12,187 nt of DNA, taken from IMG/VR virus record IMGVR_UViG_2713896785_000025, one strand, 5' to 3'. Origin of the DNA: a virus (taxonomy: Duplodnaviria; Heunggongvirae; Uroviricota; Caudoviricetes). The position numbers were made by a program, and so were the translations under genes. Below the pieces are notes generated by a model that had not been told where the DNA came from, did no database searches, and saw nothing but the letters and a program-made list of their open reading frames with translations. Below, one piece after another: positions 1-12,187 of this stretch. The number at the start of each line of letters is the position of its first letter. Position 1 is the first letter of the stretch.

Positions 1-1461
1 ATGAAAAAATTACTGCGTCTTTTTTTCCCGCTCTCACTGCGGGTACGTTTTCTGTTGGCAACGGCTGCGGTAGTACTGGTGCTTTCGCTTGCCTACGGAA
101 TGGTCGCGCTGATCGGTTATAGCGTCAGTTTCGATAAAACTACGTTTCGGCTGTTACGTGGCGAGAGCAATCTGTTCTATACCCTTGCGAAGTGGGAAAA
201 CAATAAGTTGCATGTCGAGTTACCCGAAAATATCGACAAGCAAAGCCCTACCATGACGCTAATTTATGATGAGAACGGGCAGCTTTTATGGGCGCAACGT
301 GACGTGCCCTGGCTGATGAAGATGATCCAGCCTGACTGGCTGAAATCGAATGGTTTTCATGAAATTGAAGCGGATGTTAACGATACCAGCCTCTTGCTGA
401 GTGGAGATCATTCGATACAGCAACAGTTGCAGGAAGTGCGGGAAGATGATGACGACGCGGAGATGACCCACTCGGTGGCAGTAAACGTCTACCCGGCAAC
501 ATCGCGGATGCCAAAATTAACCATTGTGGTGGTGGATACCATTCCGGTGGAGCTAAAAAGTTCCTATATGGTCTGGAGCTGGTTTATCTATGTGCTCTCA
601 GCCAATCTGCTGTTAGTGATCCCGCTGCTGTGGGTCGCCGCCTGGTGGAGTTTACGCCCCATCGAAGCCCTGGCAAAAGAAGTCCGCGAACTGGAAGAAC
701 ATAACCGCGAATTGCTCAATCCAGCCACAACGCGAGAACTGACCAGTCTGGTACGAAACCTGAACCGATTGTTAAAAAGTGAACGCGAACGTTACGACAA
801 ATACCGTACGACGCTCACCGACCTGACCCATAGTCTGAAAACGCCACTGGCGGTGCTGCAAAGTACGCTGCGTTCTCTGCGTAGTGAAAAGATGAGCGTC
901 AGTGATGCTGAGCCGGTAATGCTGGAGCAAATCAGCCGCATTTCACAGCAAATTGGCTACTACCTGCATCGTGCCAGTATGCGCGGCGGGACATTGCTCA
1001 GCCGCGAGCTGCATCCGGTCGCCCCACTGCTGGACAATCTCACCTCAGCGCTGAACAAAGTGTATCAACGCAAAGGGGTCAATATCTCTCTCGATATTTC
1101 GCCAGAGATCAGCTTTGTCGGTGAGCAGAACGATTTTGTCGAGGTGATGGGCAACGTGCTGGATAATGCCTGTAAATATTGCCTCGAGTTTGTCGAAATT
1201 TCTGCAAGGCAAACCGACGAGCATCTCTATATTGTGGTCGAGGATGATGGCCCCGGTATTCCATTAAGCAAGCGAGAGGTCATTTTCGACCGTGGTCAAC
1301 GGGTTGATACTTTACGCCCTGGGCAAGGTGTAGGGCTGGCGGTAGCCCGCGAAATCACCGAGCAATATGAGGGTAAAATCGTCGCCGGAGAGAGCATGCT
1401 GGGCGGTGCGCGGATGGAGGTGATTTTTGGTCGCCAGCATTCTGCGCCGAAAGATGAATAA
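1..1461 (+). CDS. phoQ: Sensor histidine kinase PhoQ (complete, 486 aa)
   Basis: Full-length ORF; sequence matches E. coli PhoQ as recalled (N-terminal TM segment, periplasmic acidic patch EDDDDAE, H-box [11 protein letters not shown], ATPase motifs DDGPGIP and GQGVGL). Stop TAA at 1459-1461. Confidence 0.96.
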
Positions 1462-2062
1462 ATATGTCCTTTTATCACCACAGCAAGGCAACCCATTGAT
1501 TTAATTAAACAACACACACTGCAAAAAGTGCTAAAAACAGCAAATTGACTACACCATTAACTACACCGTTCGGTGCACTGTATGAAACAACGTGGAACAA
1601 ATAGACACAAGAAATATACAGGCGGGTAATCTTTCCAGGGGGAAGCGCACCAATTCATGAGGGGCGTTAATGTCGATATGGGGATCCCCATAACGGGGCT
1701 ACCGGATTTTTTTTCCGGTTAACTGTTAATCAGGCTGGTGGGTTTTACCTGTTCGGTAGGTGTTATGATTATCGTAATACCTTTCCCCCAGTGGGGTAAA
1801 AGCTCCAACCGTAACGATGTTCGTTGTGGTTGCCTTGATGGTCTGCGTGGTCATTATGACCATTCAGAATATGAAGGGTGACGCTTCCGACTTCCTCAAA
1901 TTGAGGTTTCCGAAAATATCAGCGGGTTAGCGATTAATCTGACCATTAATTAAACTACGAAAATTTCGTAGTTTGTGAATATATTCCGGCCTTCTGGTTA
2001 ACAGTCCTCAGATGTGAGGGATGTAGCCAGCGCAATTTTGCGTTATCGGGAATATCAGCAAG

Positions 2063-5859: not shown

Positions 5860-5955
5860 TGTTTTTTTCCTCTGTTGTGTCTGTTTGTTTCAGATAGTAA
5901 CTATGCCTGACCGTGACGAAAACCCGGTAATGCGCCATACCGTTTCAACTGGTGC

Positions 5956-8528: not shown

Positions 8529-8871
8529 TTCTTGCCCCTGAATCCGTTAATCATGGTTTTCAGCTTCTGGATGTTTGCCCGTGCCCTGGCGTTGCTGGTG
8601 GGCACGTTATGCGGCGCGGTCTGTACCAGAGAAAAATCACGCCGGAACTGATAAACAGGCATCACGCAATCATATTCGTAACCTTCACGNNNNNNNNNNN
8701 NNNNNNNNNNNNNNNNNNNNNNNNNNNNNNNNNNNNNNNNNNTGATTTTTGTTTGTCGCGTTCATTGTCGCCAAGTGTTTCAAGCCATATGCGCAATATT
8801 TCCAGCATGTTTTCACTGTGAGAAAGTGCAAGAAATGCGCGGTCTATTGTTTGGTGGTAAATATCACGCAT
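8525..8871 (-). CDS. Hypothetical protein interrupted by assembly gap (N-terminal 43 codons 8743-8871; C-terminal 54 codons 8528-8689 plus stop 8525-8527)
   Basis: Both fragments are open right up to the gap edges; ATG 8869-8871 with SD GAGGA; C-terminal frame ends with TGA overlapping replicase ATG. The stated gap length (53) is not a multiple of 3, so continuity is unproven. Confidence 0.45.
8690..8742. other. Assembly gap (53 N)
   Basis: Run of n characters in the sequence. Confidence 1.
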
Positions 8872-9328
8872 GGCTTACATCCTCAGGAAATTTTCTTCTA
8901 TAACGCGCCTCTGCCACATATTCCGCATAATCGGCGGCGATATTCAGTACATCAAGCCCCGTTGATTTATATTCTCTCGTGGAAAGTAAGAAAAAAGCCG
9001 CTCTAATAAGTTCTGGCATTGACGAAAGCGCATCAGCCGCATCATCAGGAACGCCGGAAAATTCCTGTTTCAGGGAATTAAAACGATCATCACGCATAAC
9101 CCCCCCATTTTCACAATCAGCAATCAGGATGGCTTTGGCCTCATTCAGCGCCATATCCGCACTAAGTTGCATAACCGCCAGCGAATGAGGAACGAAAGCC
9201 CCGGCATATTCTGTTTCACTGGTGGCGTGCTTATGCGCCATGTCTGCGATAACAGAAATATCAATCAGCGCGTGCATTAGCGTTATGATGGCTTCGGCGG
9301 CTGCGTCCGGACGGATGTTATTGCACAT
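8864..9328 (-). CDS. Hypothetical protein (154 aa), first clearly supported gene of leftward early operon
   Basis: Near-consensus SD AGGAGGTG 5-6 nt upstream of ATG 9326-9328; stop overlaps next start by 8 nt. Confidence 0.65.
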   Translation of the reverse strand: MCNNIRPDAAAEAIITLMHALIDISVIADMAHKHATSETEYAGAFVPHSLAVMQLSADMALNEAKAILIADCENGGVMRDDRFNSLKQEFSGVPDDAADALSSMPELIRAAFFLLSTREYKSTGLDVLNIAADYAEYVAEARYRRKFPEDVSHA

Positions 9329-9524
9329 GGCACACCTCCTGACGAATACGGGCAGCGAATACCATCACGCAGCCAGCCGGAGATTGCTGGCGTGCTTCCT
9401 GTTCGCTGGTGGCCTCAATGGTAATCACGCGCGGTTGTGCCGTGCTCAGGGCGATAAAACGCCAGATGTATTTATTCAGGTTGTGCGAGTCCCGCCCTTG
9501 CGGGTGTGTGGTATGATTTCTCAT
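9318..9524 (-). CDS. Possible small protein (68 aa); C-terminal part of the 342-aa track ORF
   Basis: ATG at 9522-9524 (rc) with GAGGT 4 nt upstream; otherwise unsupported, and it contains the SD of the next gene. Confidence 0.25.
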   Translation of the reverse strand: MRNHTTHPQGRDSHNLNKYIWRFIALSTAQPRVITIEATSEQEARQQSPAGCVMVFAARIRQEVCHVQ

Positions 9525-9620
9525 AGCTACCTCGATACTTTCGCTATCGTTGGTGGTTAGAAGCCCGGTTAGTGTTAGCGCACTGCCGGGTTTCGTCGTT
9601 TCTGCACCTTGCGCCAACAA

Positions 9621-9674
9621 GGTGTTGAACACCAATTTAAACCCAGGTGTTAAACACGTCAAGTGTTGAACACT
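9621..9674. promoter_or_regulatory. Three palindromic operator-like sites GTGTT-N-AACAC with candidate rightward promoter
   Basis: GGTGTTGAACACC 9621-9633, GGTGTTAAACACG 9646-9658, AGTGTTGAACACT 9662-9674 (centres 25 and 16 bp apart). -35 TTGAAC 9666-9671 inside site 3, 17-nt spacer, -10 CATACT 9689-9694, upstream of ORF 9724. Confidence 0.6.
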
Positions 9675-9723
9675 TATTTTTTTTCCTGCATACTGCATTT
9701 GTTTTTTATGAGGGGTACACCAC

Positions 9724-9903
9724 ATGGCGACAAAAGCAGTAAACGCAAAATCACAAACCGTTGCGGCAAGGGTTCCGCATGAAGTTATGAACAATGTTGA
9801 GGCGGTAAAAATGCCTGGCGAAAGTACGGGGCAATTTGTTACTGCAGCATTAAAACGAGAAGTTGAATATCGCCAGCGGCGCAAGGCCAAAGAACCAGAG
9901 TAA
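9724..9903 (+). CDS. Small DNA-binding protein, ribbon-helix-helix-like (59 aa)
   Basis: Not in ORF track (below size cut-off). ATG 9724 with SD GAGGGG 8 nt upstream; pattern beta-strand TVAARVP, helix, loop GES, helix resembles Arc/CopG-type RHH; basic C-terminus. Confidence 0.55.
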   Translation: MATKAVNAKSQTVAARVPHEVMNNVEAVKMPGESTGQFVTAALKREVEYRQRRKAKEPE

Positions 9904-9960
9904 TCACCATCAGCGCCGTGGTGTAAGGTATTACGGCGCATTGCTATGCAGGACAACACA

Positions 9961-10134
9961 ATGACCGATAAAGAATTGACCAAAACATTATCACCGGCAC
10001 GGAAAAGACGGCGCAGAAAGATAGAGCATGAATCAGAAAGATTCGCGCCATGTGCTTTTGCCCTTGAGCAATTCCTTAAAGAGTACAGGGAAAAGCGCTC
10101 ATTGCAGGTATGGCAACGAACTGAACCAGACTGA
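9961..10134 (+). CDS. Small basic hypothetical protein (57 aa; track ORF starts at 9946)
   Basis: ATG 9961 has SD AGGA with 7-nt spacer; Arg/Lys-rich segment RKRRRRK; followed by terminator. Confidence 0.45.
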   Translation: MTDKELTKTLSPARKRRRRKIEHESERFAPCAFALEQFLKEYREKRSLQVWQRTEPD

Positions 10135-10228
10135 TAGCATTGCCCACCAGCCTGATAGCGACTATCATTGCCGTTCTTATGTTTGGGATCACACACACAA
10201 ACGGCGCAGCGGGTTATCTGTTCAGAAA

Positions 10229-10257
10229 GGCGGCTCCATTTCGGGGCCGCTTTTTTT
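10229..10257 (+). terminator. Intrinsic terminator for rightward transcript
   Basis: Stem GCGGCTCC/GGGGCCGC (one G-U pair), loop ATTTC, then T7 on + strand. Confidence 0.65.
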
Positions 10258-10403
10258 ATGTCTGAAAAACCCCAATTTTGTTGTTTTTCAGTTTCACCAG
10301 GGCGAACGAATCCCCGCCCACGTTCTGGCGTATATTCAATCTTCATGGTTATAGCTCTGTGTTCAGATGATTGATGTGTGGCGGCTGCGTGCCGCCAGCG
10401 TGA

Positions 10404-10592
10404 TTAATGAACTGCCTTGCAGCTATCCTTCCAGGCCAGAACCTCGGATAAAGACCAGCCAACGGAACGACCGCCAAGTTTACGACGTGATGGGAATTGT
10501 CCGGCCTTTTCCAGGCGGTAGCGACACGTACGGCTAAGGCCGGTTAGTTTTTCGCATTCTTTTTCACGTATAAACCGATCAGTGCTTAACAC
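10404..10592 (-). CDS. AlpA-family transcriptional regulator (about 62 aa from GTG; track gives 89 aa from TTG at 10673)
   Basis: HTH block LTGLSRTCRYRLEKAGQFP..RKLGGRSVGWSLSEV.AW typical of AlpA/Phage_AlpA as recalled; GTG at 10590-10592 (rc) preceded by SD AGGGGGG with 5-nt spacer; no internal ATG. Confidence 0.8.
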   Translation of the reverse strand: MLSTDRFIREKECEKLTGLSRTCRYRLEKAGQFPSRRKLGGRSVGWSLSEVLAWKDSCKAVH

Positions 10593-10865
10593 TATTGCCC
10601 CCCTTTCGTTTCTTAAAGAGTCATCAGGTGTCTTATTGTGTCGTATTGTTCCCGCTAGAGTGATGAATGGCAAATATTGAGGATGTATGATTTACAGAAA
10701 ATGAAACAGTAAGAATAAAATCTTTTAAATTCATGTTAATACAAAGGCATAAAATATTGTTTCATGCCTTTTTTCTCACGCGTTAAAGCGTTATTCGCTA
10801 ATGTATAAAAAAACAGTCACACAAATAAAATCAGTCACTTATAAACCTGTGTACTTTTTCGCCTC

Positions 10866-10910
10866 TTGTTCGTGGTTGTTCCACGTTGTTTCACATTGTT
10901 CGCCGTTGTA
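10866..10910. repeat. Five phased direct repeats TTGTT at exact 10-bp intervals
   Basis: TTGTT at 10866, 10876, 10886, 10896 and TTGTA at 10906; adjacent 16-bp perfect palindrome CAGTATGCGCATACTG at 10925-10940. Confidence 0.55.
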
Positions 10911-10957
10911 TCTGTGTGCTTATCCAGTATGCGCATACTGAAAAAACACGAAAAAAA

Positions 10958-12187
10958 TTATTTTCTTCTGGCTGCTGGTAGTGCGGTTACGTTTTCATGT
11001 GTTCCCGCCAGTATCCCTAACCGCTCCATCCACATATCCAGCGCATTGCGTTTAGCATCCAGATAACGGGAATGATTATAAACTCGCTGCATTCCTGGCA
11101 TCTGGTGGCCTGTAAGCTGCTCCACGACGTGAGGATCCACGCCTAAATCGCTCAGCATCGTTGTAAAGGTGCGCCGGATGTCATGTAGTGACCAGTGAGG
11201 GTGATTTAGCCTCCTGTGCGCTAATCTGCCGTACTGCGACACGCTTGTTTCCTGTTTCACTTCCCCCAGCAATAAGCCCGTGTGCCTGTTCTGCTCCACC
11301 AGCTGCGTGACGAACGGCAGTATTGCTTCCGGTATGGGCCGGAATATTGCCACCTTCGTTTTGCTGTGTTCTTTCGGCACGGTCCAGAGCATTTCGGTAA
11401 AATCCCACTCGCTGATCTCCGATAACCTCAGTTCTACCGTCCGGCATCCGAACACAATCAGGAGGCGGATTAACGCGATGTAGTAGGGGGAGAATATTTT
11501 TTTGTCCAGTGCCTGCAATAATTCGCCCAGTTCTTTGGTGCTTAAGACACGCTCGCTTATATCCGGTTTTTTCCCAACGTCCGCCACACTCATATCATCA
11601 AGAACGTTGCTGATTGCATAGCGCCGCCTCCGGCAGAACTTAAGCGCCTGTTTGCACGTCTGTAGCAAGAATCCGGCAGTAACAGGCGTTCGCTTTGCCA
11701 CCTGGTCAAAACAGGCCAGCCAGTGCCGTAGCTCGCATTTATCCAGCGGCATAGCACCAATGTGCTGTATTACGTGATTATTAAGGCGCTTTTTCAGGGC
11801 GGCATAATCCACGCGGTTTTCCTTTGCGTACGACTCAAGCCAGTAGGTGAGCGCATCGCCAACCGTTACCGGCTTTAACGCTTCCTGTACGGTGTAATTA
11901 AGCTCATGACGTGGATTTTTCCCCTCTGCCAGCCATGCGCGACACTGGGCGGCTTTTTCCCTGGCTGATTTCAGGCTCAGATCAGGATAATTTCCCAGCT
12001 TAATGCGTTCCGGTGGTGCCCCCCTTCCCGTTCCGGCCCTGTAAGTGAAATACCAGGTTAAAAGGCCACTGGTTGAATGCCTGACGCTCAGGTTTCCACC
12101 GTCATTAAGAAAGGCTGTTTTTTGGGCGGGTGTGCCGTTGATTTTCCTCAGCTGTGTATCGCTCAGTTTGTTAAGTGCTCTGCTCAT
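10958..12187 (-). CDS. Tyrosine recombinase / integrase, P4-like family (409 aa; start codon at the window edge, so the 5' end could be truncated)
   Basis: N-terminal arm-binding-type region; catalytic-domain motifs GCRTVELRL, HDIRRTFTT, LTGHQ...VYNHSRY (R, H-x-x-R, Y). Confidence 0.92.
   Translation of the reverse strand: MSRALNKLSDTQLRKINGTPAQKTAFLNDGGNLSVRHSTSGLLTWYFTYRAGTGRGAPPERIKLGNYPDLSLKSAREKAAQCRAWLAEGKNPRHELNYTVQEALKPVTVGDALTYWLESYAKENRVDYAALKKRLNNHVIQHIGAMPLDKCELRHWLACFDQVAKRTPVTAGFLLQTCKQALKFCRRRRYAISNVLDDMSVADVGKKPDISERVLSTKELGELLQALDKKIFSPYYIALIRLLIVFGCRTVELRLSEISEWDFTEMLWTVPKEHSKTKVAIFRPIPEAILPFVTQLVEQNRHTGLLLGEVKQETSVSQYGRLAHRRLNHPHWSLHDIRRTFTTMLSDLGVDPHVVEQLTGHQMPGMQRVYNHSRYLDAKRNALDMWMERLGILAGTHENVTALPAARRK

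Follow-up and report, generated by a model that had tools for sequence, protein, structure and literature searches.

EcCICFT073 is an experimentally studied phage-inducible chromosomal island (PICI) in which AlpA activates PalpA, and not Pint, and in which overexpression of AlpA leads to int-dependent excision and replication of the island (PMC6092414). The helper phages lambda and phi80 induce transcription of alpA through a factor that was not identified (PMC6092414), a question that is also left open in PMC10803314. For PICMI, it has been described that AlpA is necessary and sufficient for excision while transcription is unchanged (PMC10803314). Crosstalk at the level of excisionases has been reported for a PICI and its helper (PMC11773190), and H-NS silences an alpA promoter in the Shewanella prophage CP4So (PMC8034616).

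Excisionases of the RDF type bind direct repeats that lie one helical turn apart, and do so cooperatively and with bending of the DNA (PMC7498355). Apl of phage 186 is a small RDF that binds cooperatively, with bending, to arrays at attP and at promoters; its repeats are 10-11 bp apart and number five in attP and seven in the region of its own promoter (PMC7498355). In the case of TorI of KplE1 (CPS-53), GTTCG-type units about 10 bp apart are located in the att region, where they overlap and regulate a promoter, and the arm-type sites of the integrase IntS are a separate motif (PMC2951348). Vis of P4, an AlpA-family protein, has been footprinted in attP (PMC2603039), and P4 is like the island described below in that it combines a P4-type integrase with such a protein. 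In phage lambda, the excisionase Xis has three sites, on the P arm only, and no known transcriptional role. Lambda Xis binds as head-to-tail monomers one turn apart, at sites placed directly core-proximal to an Int arm-type site, the order being the P2 arm site followed by X1-X1.5-X2. The lambda arm sites P'1-P'3, too, adjoin one another as direct repeats with a period of about 10 bp. PMC7498355 cites the complex of Xis with DNA. Integrase arm sites of another form have been proposed for helper-embedded PICIs (HE-PICIs), in which a doubled tgTGTATTGCa motif (TGTATTGC) occurs in attP (PMC10111431), and the arm sites of IntS of ICEMlSymR7A, a P4-family integrase, are TGKTGGTATC (PMC11963761).

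The stretch of DNA analysed here, 12,187 nucleotides in full (the window), contains a PICI inserted between phoQ and roxA. The host segment is E. coli chromosome, with the phoQ end at 1461 and the integrated island rightward of that position. EcCICFT073 is a close relative, with the same insertion site and alpA DNA that is 88% identical. Genes of the island are encoded on the minus strand, in the order int, a 365-bp spacer and alpA, and further minus-strand genes encode a RepA-type helicase, an SSB, a PerC-like regulator, a lambda-type major capsid E protein, decoration proteins and a Nu1-like small terminase. The features at the ends and those of the integration module are as follows:

1460 to 1469, plus strand: attL core AAATATGTCC, overlapping the stop codon of phoQ, a decamer common to the phoQ end and the roxA side.
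10404 to 10592, minus strand: alpA, encoding a 62-residue Phage_AlpA winged-helix protein (PF05930, E 1.5e-16), with a GTG start as in RefSeq WP_000953272.
10958 to 12187, minus strand: int, encoding a tyrosine integrase with an Arm-DNA-bind_3 domain (N-terminal, P4 type) and a Phage_integrase domain; the stop codon is at 10958-10960.

The integrase is 23% identical to that of P4. AlpA falls in PHROG 2790 ('excisionase and transcriptional regulator') and shares 45% identity with P4 Vis; no other protein of the island matches an excisionase family, and several further small regulators are encoded in it. The gene roxA was seen beyond int in E. coli strain E2865 (L001), whose int-alpA segment is 100% identical to that of the window. 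The identity to this strain extends over 10400-12187, and a 192-bp difference lies somewhere between phoQ and alpA. An ORF of 342 amino acids at 9318-10346 is annotated in relatives as fragments or pseudogenes (Icd-like, hypothetical), and 53 N (masked or unresolved) occur at 8690-8742, in the island upstream of the helicase gene. The attR core is located about 172-181 bp upstream of the int ATG, beyond the edge of the window. Among 5426 complete E. coli genomes, 4823 contain, without a break, the empty site that results when the two flanks, phoQ and roxA, are joined at the decamer AAATATGTCC. The ends of the island are thereby fixed, and the site would be occupied or altered in the remaining 600 or so genomes.

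Two features were identified in the distal part of the spacer, beside int:

10856 to 10915, plus strand: distal phased array (array C), comprising five exact TTGT units and a degenerate unit at 10856.
10925 to 10940: perfect 16-bp palindrome CAGTATGCGCATACTG, present in one clade only.

The original prediction was of five TTGTT pentamers at an exact spacing of 10 bp. The number and the spacing hold for the tetramer TTGT, which occurs five times exactly 10 bp apart, always on the plus strand (10866-10909); TTGTT itself is found only four times (10866, 10876, 10886 and 10896), the copy at 10906 reading TTGTA. A sixth, degenerate unit (TTTTCGCCTC) precedes them at 10856, and the consensus unit of the family is TTGT-T/g-C/T-C/G-n-C/G-G. 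An array of period 10 was reported independently by Tandem Repeats Finder, and a second repeat search returned a family (D1) with spacings of 10, 10 and 10. Array C is far beyond chance: with 200 dinucleotide-preserving shuffles, no match to five TTGT-N6 units is expected, and at least three phased TTGT units occurred in one of 500 shuffles of the window and one of 5000 shuffles of the spacer, with a run of five in none. Its G+C content is 40-45% and its TTGT units are not A-tracts. The nearest core, that of attR, lies about 1.3 kb away on the far side of int, and attL is about 9.4 kb away. In the other direction, array C is some 190-240 bp upstream of the predicted -35 of alpA, with a terminator-like hairpin in between.

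Several other origins of a 10-bp repeat were considered and set aside. A coding repeat (plus-strand ORF at 10866-11066) is ruled out, as the 10-bp indels seen in relatives would shift the frame. A lambda CII-type activator site (TTGC-N6-TTGC) for a plus-strand antisense promoter was dropped because the tetramer here is TTGT, is present in five to seven copies and belongs to a motif that also occurs in the att arms; a promoter scan found no plus-strand promoter at array C. Iterons of a replication origin were likewise set aside, the motif being present in the att arms and the origin of such islands having been reported downstream of pri (PMC10111431). Rfam covariance models applied to 10500-11050 gave one match only, at chance level (E 0.84).

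The int-alpA spacer was found in 851 E. coli records, at 67-100% identity. Eighty-one spacers were gathered, from twelve E. coli loci, EcCICFT073 and 68 IMG/VR contigs, and 66 of these are distinct. None of the 66 distinct spacers lacks the array; where the spacer is full-length, the distal array is present as five or six exact units or as three plus two around one degenerate unit (spacer L084, which ends short of this region, was left unscored). The spacer of EcCICFT073 is of the same AlpA type and contains six TTGT units. Unit statistics were taken from 94 units in 17 representative spacers less than 95% identical to one another. Positions 1, 3 and 4 of the unit (T, G and T) are 100% conserved and position 2 is T in 95%; conservation is partial at positions 5-7 (T/g, C/T, C/G), and the bases at 8-10 drift. 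The length of the array varies only by whole 10-bp units, with spacer lengths clustering at about 361, 371 and 381 bp; one O157 strain has a sixth distal unit, and another strain lacks one unit of the proximal array described below. Invariant cores, variable gaps and whole-unit steps across the 66 spacers fit the phylogenetic footprint of an arrayed protein-binding site on one face of the DNA, as had been suggested from the window alone.

In loci that bear the arrays, Int and AlpA are always of the same two families and the arrays co-occur with both. A scan of contigs based on the integrase was of no comparative value, bringing up a single close relative and an unrelated MAG, and a search for AlpA homologues returned 19 matches, mostly near-identical. 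Three islands with AlpA homologues have an extra gene between int and alpA and a spacer without the arrays, although their P arms are informative. A second AlpA variant is found in the cspD islands (L015-L017 and L088), the spacer of which is 420 bp long; the units in that spacer keep a GTTCG core (e.g. TTGTTCGCTA, AGGTTCGTAG and AAGCTCGTTA) rather than TTGTT, and the P arm keeps a doubled ACTACACC motif and TTGTTCG units.

The 16-bp palindrome predicted between int and alpA is present and perfect, at 10925-10940, 18 nt past the int stop. It had been bundled with the array, and here the two part company: the palindrome is absent from the EcCICFT073-type clade, which has another pair of TTGT units (CGTTGTTTCACGTTGTCCGCATCCTG) at the homologous bases. 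Of 300 shuffles of the window, 53 yielded a perfect palindrome of 16 bp or longer somewhere in the 12 kb, and the window itself has a second one (TATGGGGATCCCCATA) at 1677-1692, near the left end of the island, so that, taken by itself, the palindrome does not exceed chance at the scale of the window. The sequence around this second palindrome (GATATGGGGATCCCCATA...TTAACGCC) is also found in EcCICFT073, in the tqsA island and at the left ends of some HE-PICIs. Within its own clade the palindrome of the spacer is kept better than its immediate flanks, and a clade-specific role is possible, outside the conserved element. It does not resemble an intrinsic terminator, since on the int strand the T run comes ahead of the hairpin and on the plus strand the hairpin is followed by an A run; it was not listed by the terminator scan, and neither strand has a T run after the hairpin. 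Nor is it a LexA box, which has the form CTGT-N8-ACAG, the palindrome being CAG-N10-CTG.

A scan of the window for phased TTGT returned few runs: the distal array, a pair at 10636/10646, a minus-strand series at 1610/1600/1590 and a pair at 5875/5885. The following features were identified towards the left end of the island and in its interior:

1489 to 1501, minus strand: IHF consensus match, situated between the core of attL and the left-arm doubled motif.
1548 to 1567, plus strand: doubled 12-bp motif ACTACACCATTAACTACACC (ACTACACC twice), a candidate integrase arm-type site.
1581 to 1610, minus strand: phased array of the left att arm (array A), TTGTGTCTAT TTGTTCCACG TTGTTTCATA, from the phased-TTGT scan.
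5875 to 5894, plus strand: tentative two-unit array, TTGTGTCTGT TTGTTTCAGA, just upstream of an ORF of 74 amino acids that follows the perC terminator.

Comparison with the other end of the island had been recommended, and the same phased motif was indeed found there, at 1581-1610; arrays A and C have 18 identical bases in common (TTGTTCCACGTTGTTTCA). The right arm lies upstream of int just outside the window and was read from loci L001, L018 and L216. It carries a further array (array B; TTGTGATTTTCC TTGTTCCAGC TTGTTTCACG TTGTAGCCCT TTGTGCAACG) and a further GTTTCA/GTTCA series at 10 bp that runs toward the core. With the proximal array of the spacer, this makes a layout of four sites that is the same in EcCICFT073 and in the capsid-forming PICI (cf-PICI) in tqsA, the latter having one extra array of three units. 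Runs of at least three units are confined to the att arms and the spacer in the island of the window, in EcCICFT073 and in the cf-PICI, with this one exception. The extra array (TTGTTCGTGGTTGTTCCACGTTGTTCAC, L216 9287-9316) is located upstream of the capsid operon, after the perC terminator, a spot equivalent to that of the pair at 5875-5894. At this spot the protein of the other arrays may have an additional target, by which it would control late genes.

The doubled motif ACTACACCATTAACTACACC occurs exactly twice in 25.8 kb, once per arm and co-oriented. The left copy lies 80-100 bp inside the left end and the right copy 27-46 bp upstream of the int ATG (L001 13815-13834), giving an arm in which the int ATG is followed by the doubled motif, the phased array and then the core. 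This order mirrors that of the lambda arm site and Xis sites. The record of P4 annotates an 'attP arm sequence repeat' of tandem 12-bp units (GATGCCCCCAAT TATGCCCCCAAT), located 16-39 bp in front of the int ATG, with another pair in the same orientation past the core; the geometry is that of the doubled motif of the island. Between its doubled motif and core, P4 has GGACAACctcGGAAGACgcaGGACGAA, in which GGACAAC, GGAAGAC and GGACGAA form three units at 10 bp, with the position and orientation of the GGAACAA/GAAACAA units of the island. The arm-repeat motifs themselves differ (ATGCCCCCA in P4, ACTACACC in the island), and vis is 5 kb from int in P4, whereas alpA directly follows int in the island. 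Upstream of vis, P4 has three TTAAAGnCA units at 10 bp, annotated as 'ori type 2 repeat' (L215 9176-9205). These match the consensus of the P2 Cox boxes, sites at which the RDF of the helper acts on the satellite. The array upstream of alpA has instead the motif of the island's own att arms.

HE-PICIs are similar in having int-alpA modules and a doubled 12-bp motif, one copy per arm and co-oriented, and the doubled TGTATTGC motif was confirmed in six such elements. They differ in an int-alpA spacer of only about 60 bp, and PMC10111431 describes the doubled motif only. Phased arrays of at least three units were not found in the HE-PICI loci examined, the AlpA proteins of which are 52-56% identical and have a different recognition helix and wing; as a test between Int and AlpA this is weakly informative. 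Across diverged modules the doubled motif differs wholly (GGTGTAGT, GGTGCAGT, TGGTCCAAA, TTGGGGGCAT and TGTATTGC), and a GTT(T)C(C/G) core persists in the phased units of every module in which the helix-turn-helix of AlpA (LTGlSRtTrY..L...G.FP) is conserved. In this small sample of sequences, such a pattern points to a doubled motif that tracks the integrase and a phased array that tracks AlpA. The TGKTGGTATC site of the ICEMlSymR7A integrase is closer to GGTGTAGT than to TTGTTC.

Within the spacer, the region controlling alpA has the following features:

10626 to 10655, plus strand: proximal phased array (array D), AGGTGTCTTA TTGTGTCGTA TTGTTCCCGC, over the predicted -10 of alpA and the first transcribed bases.
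10645 to 10673, minus strand: predicted sigma-70 promoter of alpA, TTGCCA, 17 bp, AACAAT.
10743 to 10774: hairpin with a 12-bp stem and a T run on the plus strand, conserved and terminator-like, between array C and the alpA promoter.
10829 to 10841, plus strand: IHF consensus match (AATCAGTCACTTA) at a distance of 25 bp from array C, with an AAAATCA core that is invariant across the family.

Array D consists of the TTGT pair at 10636/10646 and a degenerate third unit at 10626. The -35 block of the predicted promoter (TGGCAAA) is invariant in all relatives, and the -10 hexamer is itself one ACAA(T) unit; no other promoter-like element is conserved, and array D overlaps it. The IHF consensus WATCARNNNNTTR has five matches in the window, about one being expected. 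The hairpin is kept across clades with a changed stem (GGCAT/ATGCC versus GGCGTAAA/TTTACGCC); it would end plus-strand transcription antisense to alpA and may also be a weak terminator of int. Between arrays C and D the G+C content falls to 22-33%. A second conserved element of the spacer, the invariant block TATTCGC.A.TGTA.AAAAA..CAGT, was observed at 10793-10838, which also has two direct repeats of AAAA(A/T)CAGTCAC, 18 bp apart.

Four features expected of an array bound by an RDF are found here. The units of array C are direct repeats in one orientation, at a spacing of exactly 10 bp, within the 10-11 bp of such arrays; a short core is repeated at least three times, with variable positions outside it; like arrays are present in the att site of the element (the left arm at 1581-1610 and the right arm); and the element encodes a protein of an RDF family, AlpA. 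Given the published excision and activation of PalpA, a protein of the AlpA type must contact the att arms and, in this family, the spacer, and the phased TTGT units are the only motif common to the two. Three readings had been put forward for the array: integrase arm-type sites, AlpA or excisionase sites, and bending elements for the alpA promoter. AlpA or excisionase sites fit best, whereas integrase arm-type sites fit worst because array C is 1.3 kb from the nearest core and a separate doubled motif occupies the position of the P4 arm repeat. The reading preferred is that the TTGT arrays are RDF-type (excisionase) operators with AlpA as their binder, the doubled motif probably being the integrase arm site. 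Its probability is kept near 0.55 because of the tension between activation and repression set out below and because the Int and AlpA types are completely linked.

If the arrays are AlpA operators, one AlpA monomer would occupy each TTGTTY unit, head to tail and once per turn, binding cooperatively and bending the DNA. At the arrays of the att arms AlpA would drive excision, beside a doubled motif bound by the integrase, and in the right arm bending at the core-proximal array would bring arm-bound Int to the core. In the spacer, the distal array of five to six units and the array of two to three units over the -10 and +1 would give AlpA feedback on its own promoter, and an AlpA filament could loop or remodel the promoter region by way of the IHF match and the stretch of 22-33% G+C. 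The sign of this feedback is not readable from the sequence, as occlusion at array D predicts repression and the published net effect is activation; that AlpA is the binder is an inference, as is the direction of regulation at the individual arrays. A direct activating contact from array C is unlikely, given its distance from the -35 and the hairpin between them, and net activation would need a looped or remodelled complex or relief of silencing.

Apl of phage 186 is a described parallel for arrays of repeats 10-11 bp apart serving both attP and promoters, although it differs in repressing pR and pL, in having its operators between face-to-face promoters and in being a sequence outlier among RDFs. 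The net effect of AlpA in EcCICFT073 is activation, unlike that of Apl, and the island has two separated arrays in the spacer. TorI is similar in its GTTCG-type units and in the separation of these from the integrase sites, but its sites occur on attL only and the promoter repressed is that of the integrase; TorI was not detected as a sequence relative of the island AlpA in a PDB sequence search. RDF sites on both att arms, as proposed here, are unusual. The lambda Xis consensus itself was rejected as a description of the arrays: X1/X2-like sequences are no commoner in the window than expected (16 observed, 16 expected) and do not occur in arrays C or D. The antitermination mechanism of Pseudomonas aeruginosa AlpA (an ABE and a sigma-dependent pause) was also rejected. 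That protein is 21Q-like, with more than 140 residues and a C-terminal helix-turn-helix, and binds a GGGACG element between the -35 and -10 (PMC9371919); as the island AlpA is a 62-residue protein of the Vis/Xis type, the two are unrelated and the shared name is coincidental.

The TTGT arrays could instead be arm-type sites for the N-terminal domain of Int, with the spacer copy allowing Int to regulate alpA or serving as a reservoir of Int. The presence of arrays on both att arms, as with arm-type sites, the Arm-DNA-bind_3 domain of Int, the similar spacing of lambda P'1-P'3 and the company of Int and arrays in every locus all favour this explanation. It is nevertheless unlikely. Arm-type sites are located in the arms, within reach of the intasome, and array C lies across int from its nearest core; in the P4 class they form a doubled 12-bp co-oriented pair per arm, which describes ACTACACCATTAACTACACC and not the TTGT units. 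The doubled motif holds the place annotated in P4 and proposed in HE-PICIs (PMC10111431), and varies with the integrase while the phased core is constant; the IntS sites TGKTGGTATC (PMC11963761) are also nearer to GGTGTAGT. That the array has no function at all, being a slippage-prone tandem repeat or the decayed duplicate of an att arm, is very improbable. Variation in copy number by whole units and the 18 bp identical between array C and the left-arm array would be expected of such a repeat, but not the preservation of four positions per unit while six drift, in spacers down to 67% identity, nor the retention of the array in all 66 distinct spacers.

Two further explanations place another protein on the arrays. 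An island or host protein other than AlpA (PerC-like, Icd/Bro-like, H-NS or Fis), or the intrinsic shape of the DNA, is rather unlikely as the basis of the pattern: the low G+C content between the spacer arrays, the H-NS silencing of the CP4So alpA promoter (PMC8034616) and the several small island regulators with no known target would suit it, but the units are not A-tracts, the array has 40-45% G+C, and the location in the att arms beside the arm repeat points to an accessory protein of recombination, for which AlpA is the sole excisionase-family match. Less probable still is a protein of the helper phage, an excisionase or early protein, that reads the spacer arrays and switches on alpA, as P2 Cox does on P4. 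This would account for the induction of alpA by lambda and phi80 (PMC6092414, PMC10803314) and agrees with the excisionase crosstalk reported for a PICI and its helper (PMC11773190). The three phased TTAAAGnCA units of P4 upstream of vis offer a parallel. Lambda Xis-like sequences are, however, not enriched (16 against 16 expected), the motif is also present in the att arms of the island itself, which speaks for a partner of the island integrase that the island encodes, and different helpers would all have to recognise one motif. If it were true, such a protein would represent the long-sought inducer pathway of Gram-negative PICIs.

The arrays, read as AlpA operators, are a known type of phage switch element that has not previously been pointed out for PICIs in the searchable literature. 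Gram-negative PICIs are switched on through AlpA, the DNA targets of which are not defined in that literature, and here a short conserved motif is pinned to four or five precise positions, namely the two att arms, two sites in the control region of alpA and possibly the late operon. The spacer type of this island is present in about 850 of the 5426 complete E. coli genomes. If the preferred reading is true, it would provide a sequence signature for the annotation of such switches, together with a clean candidate for the integrase arm site, and one protein of 62 residues would couple excision to transcription in a widespread family of satellites.
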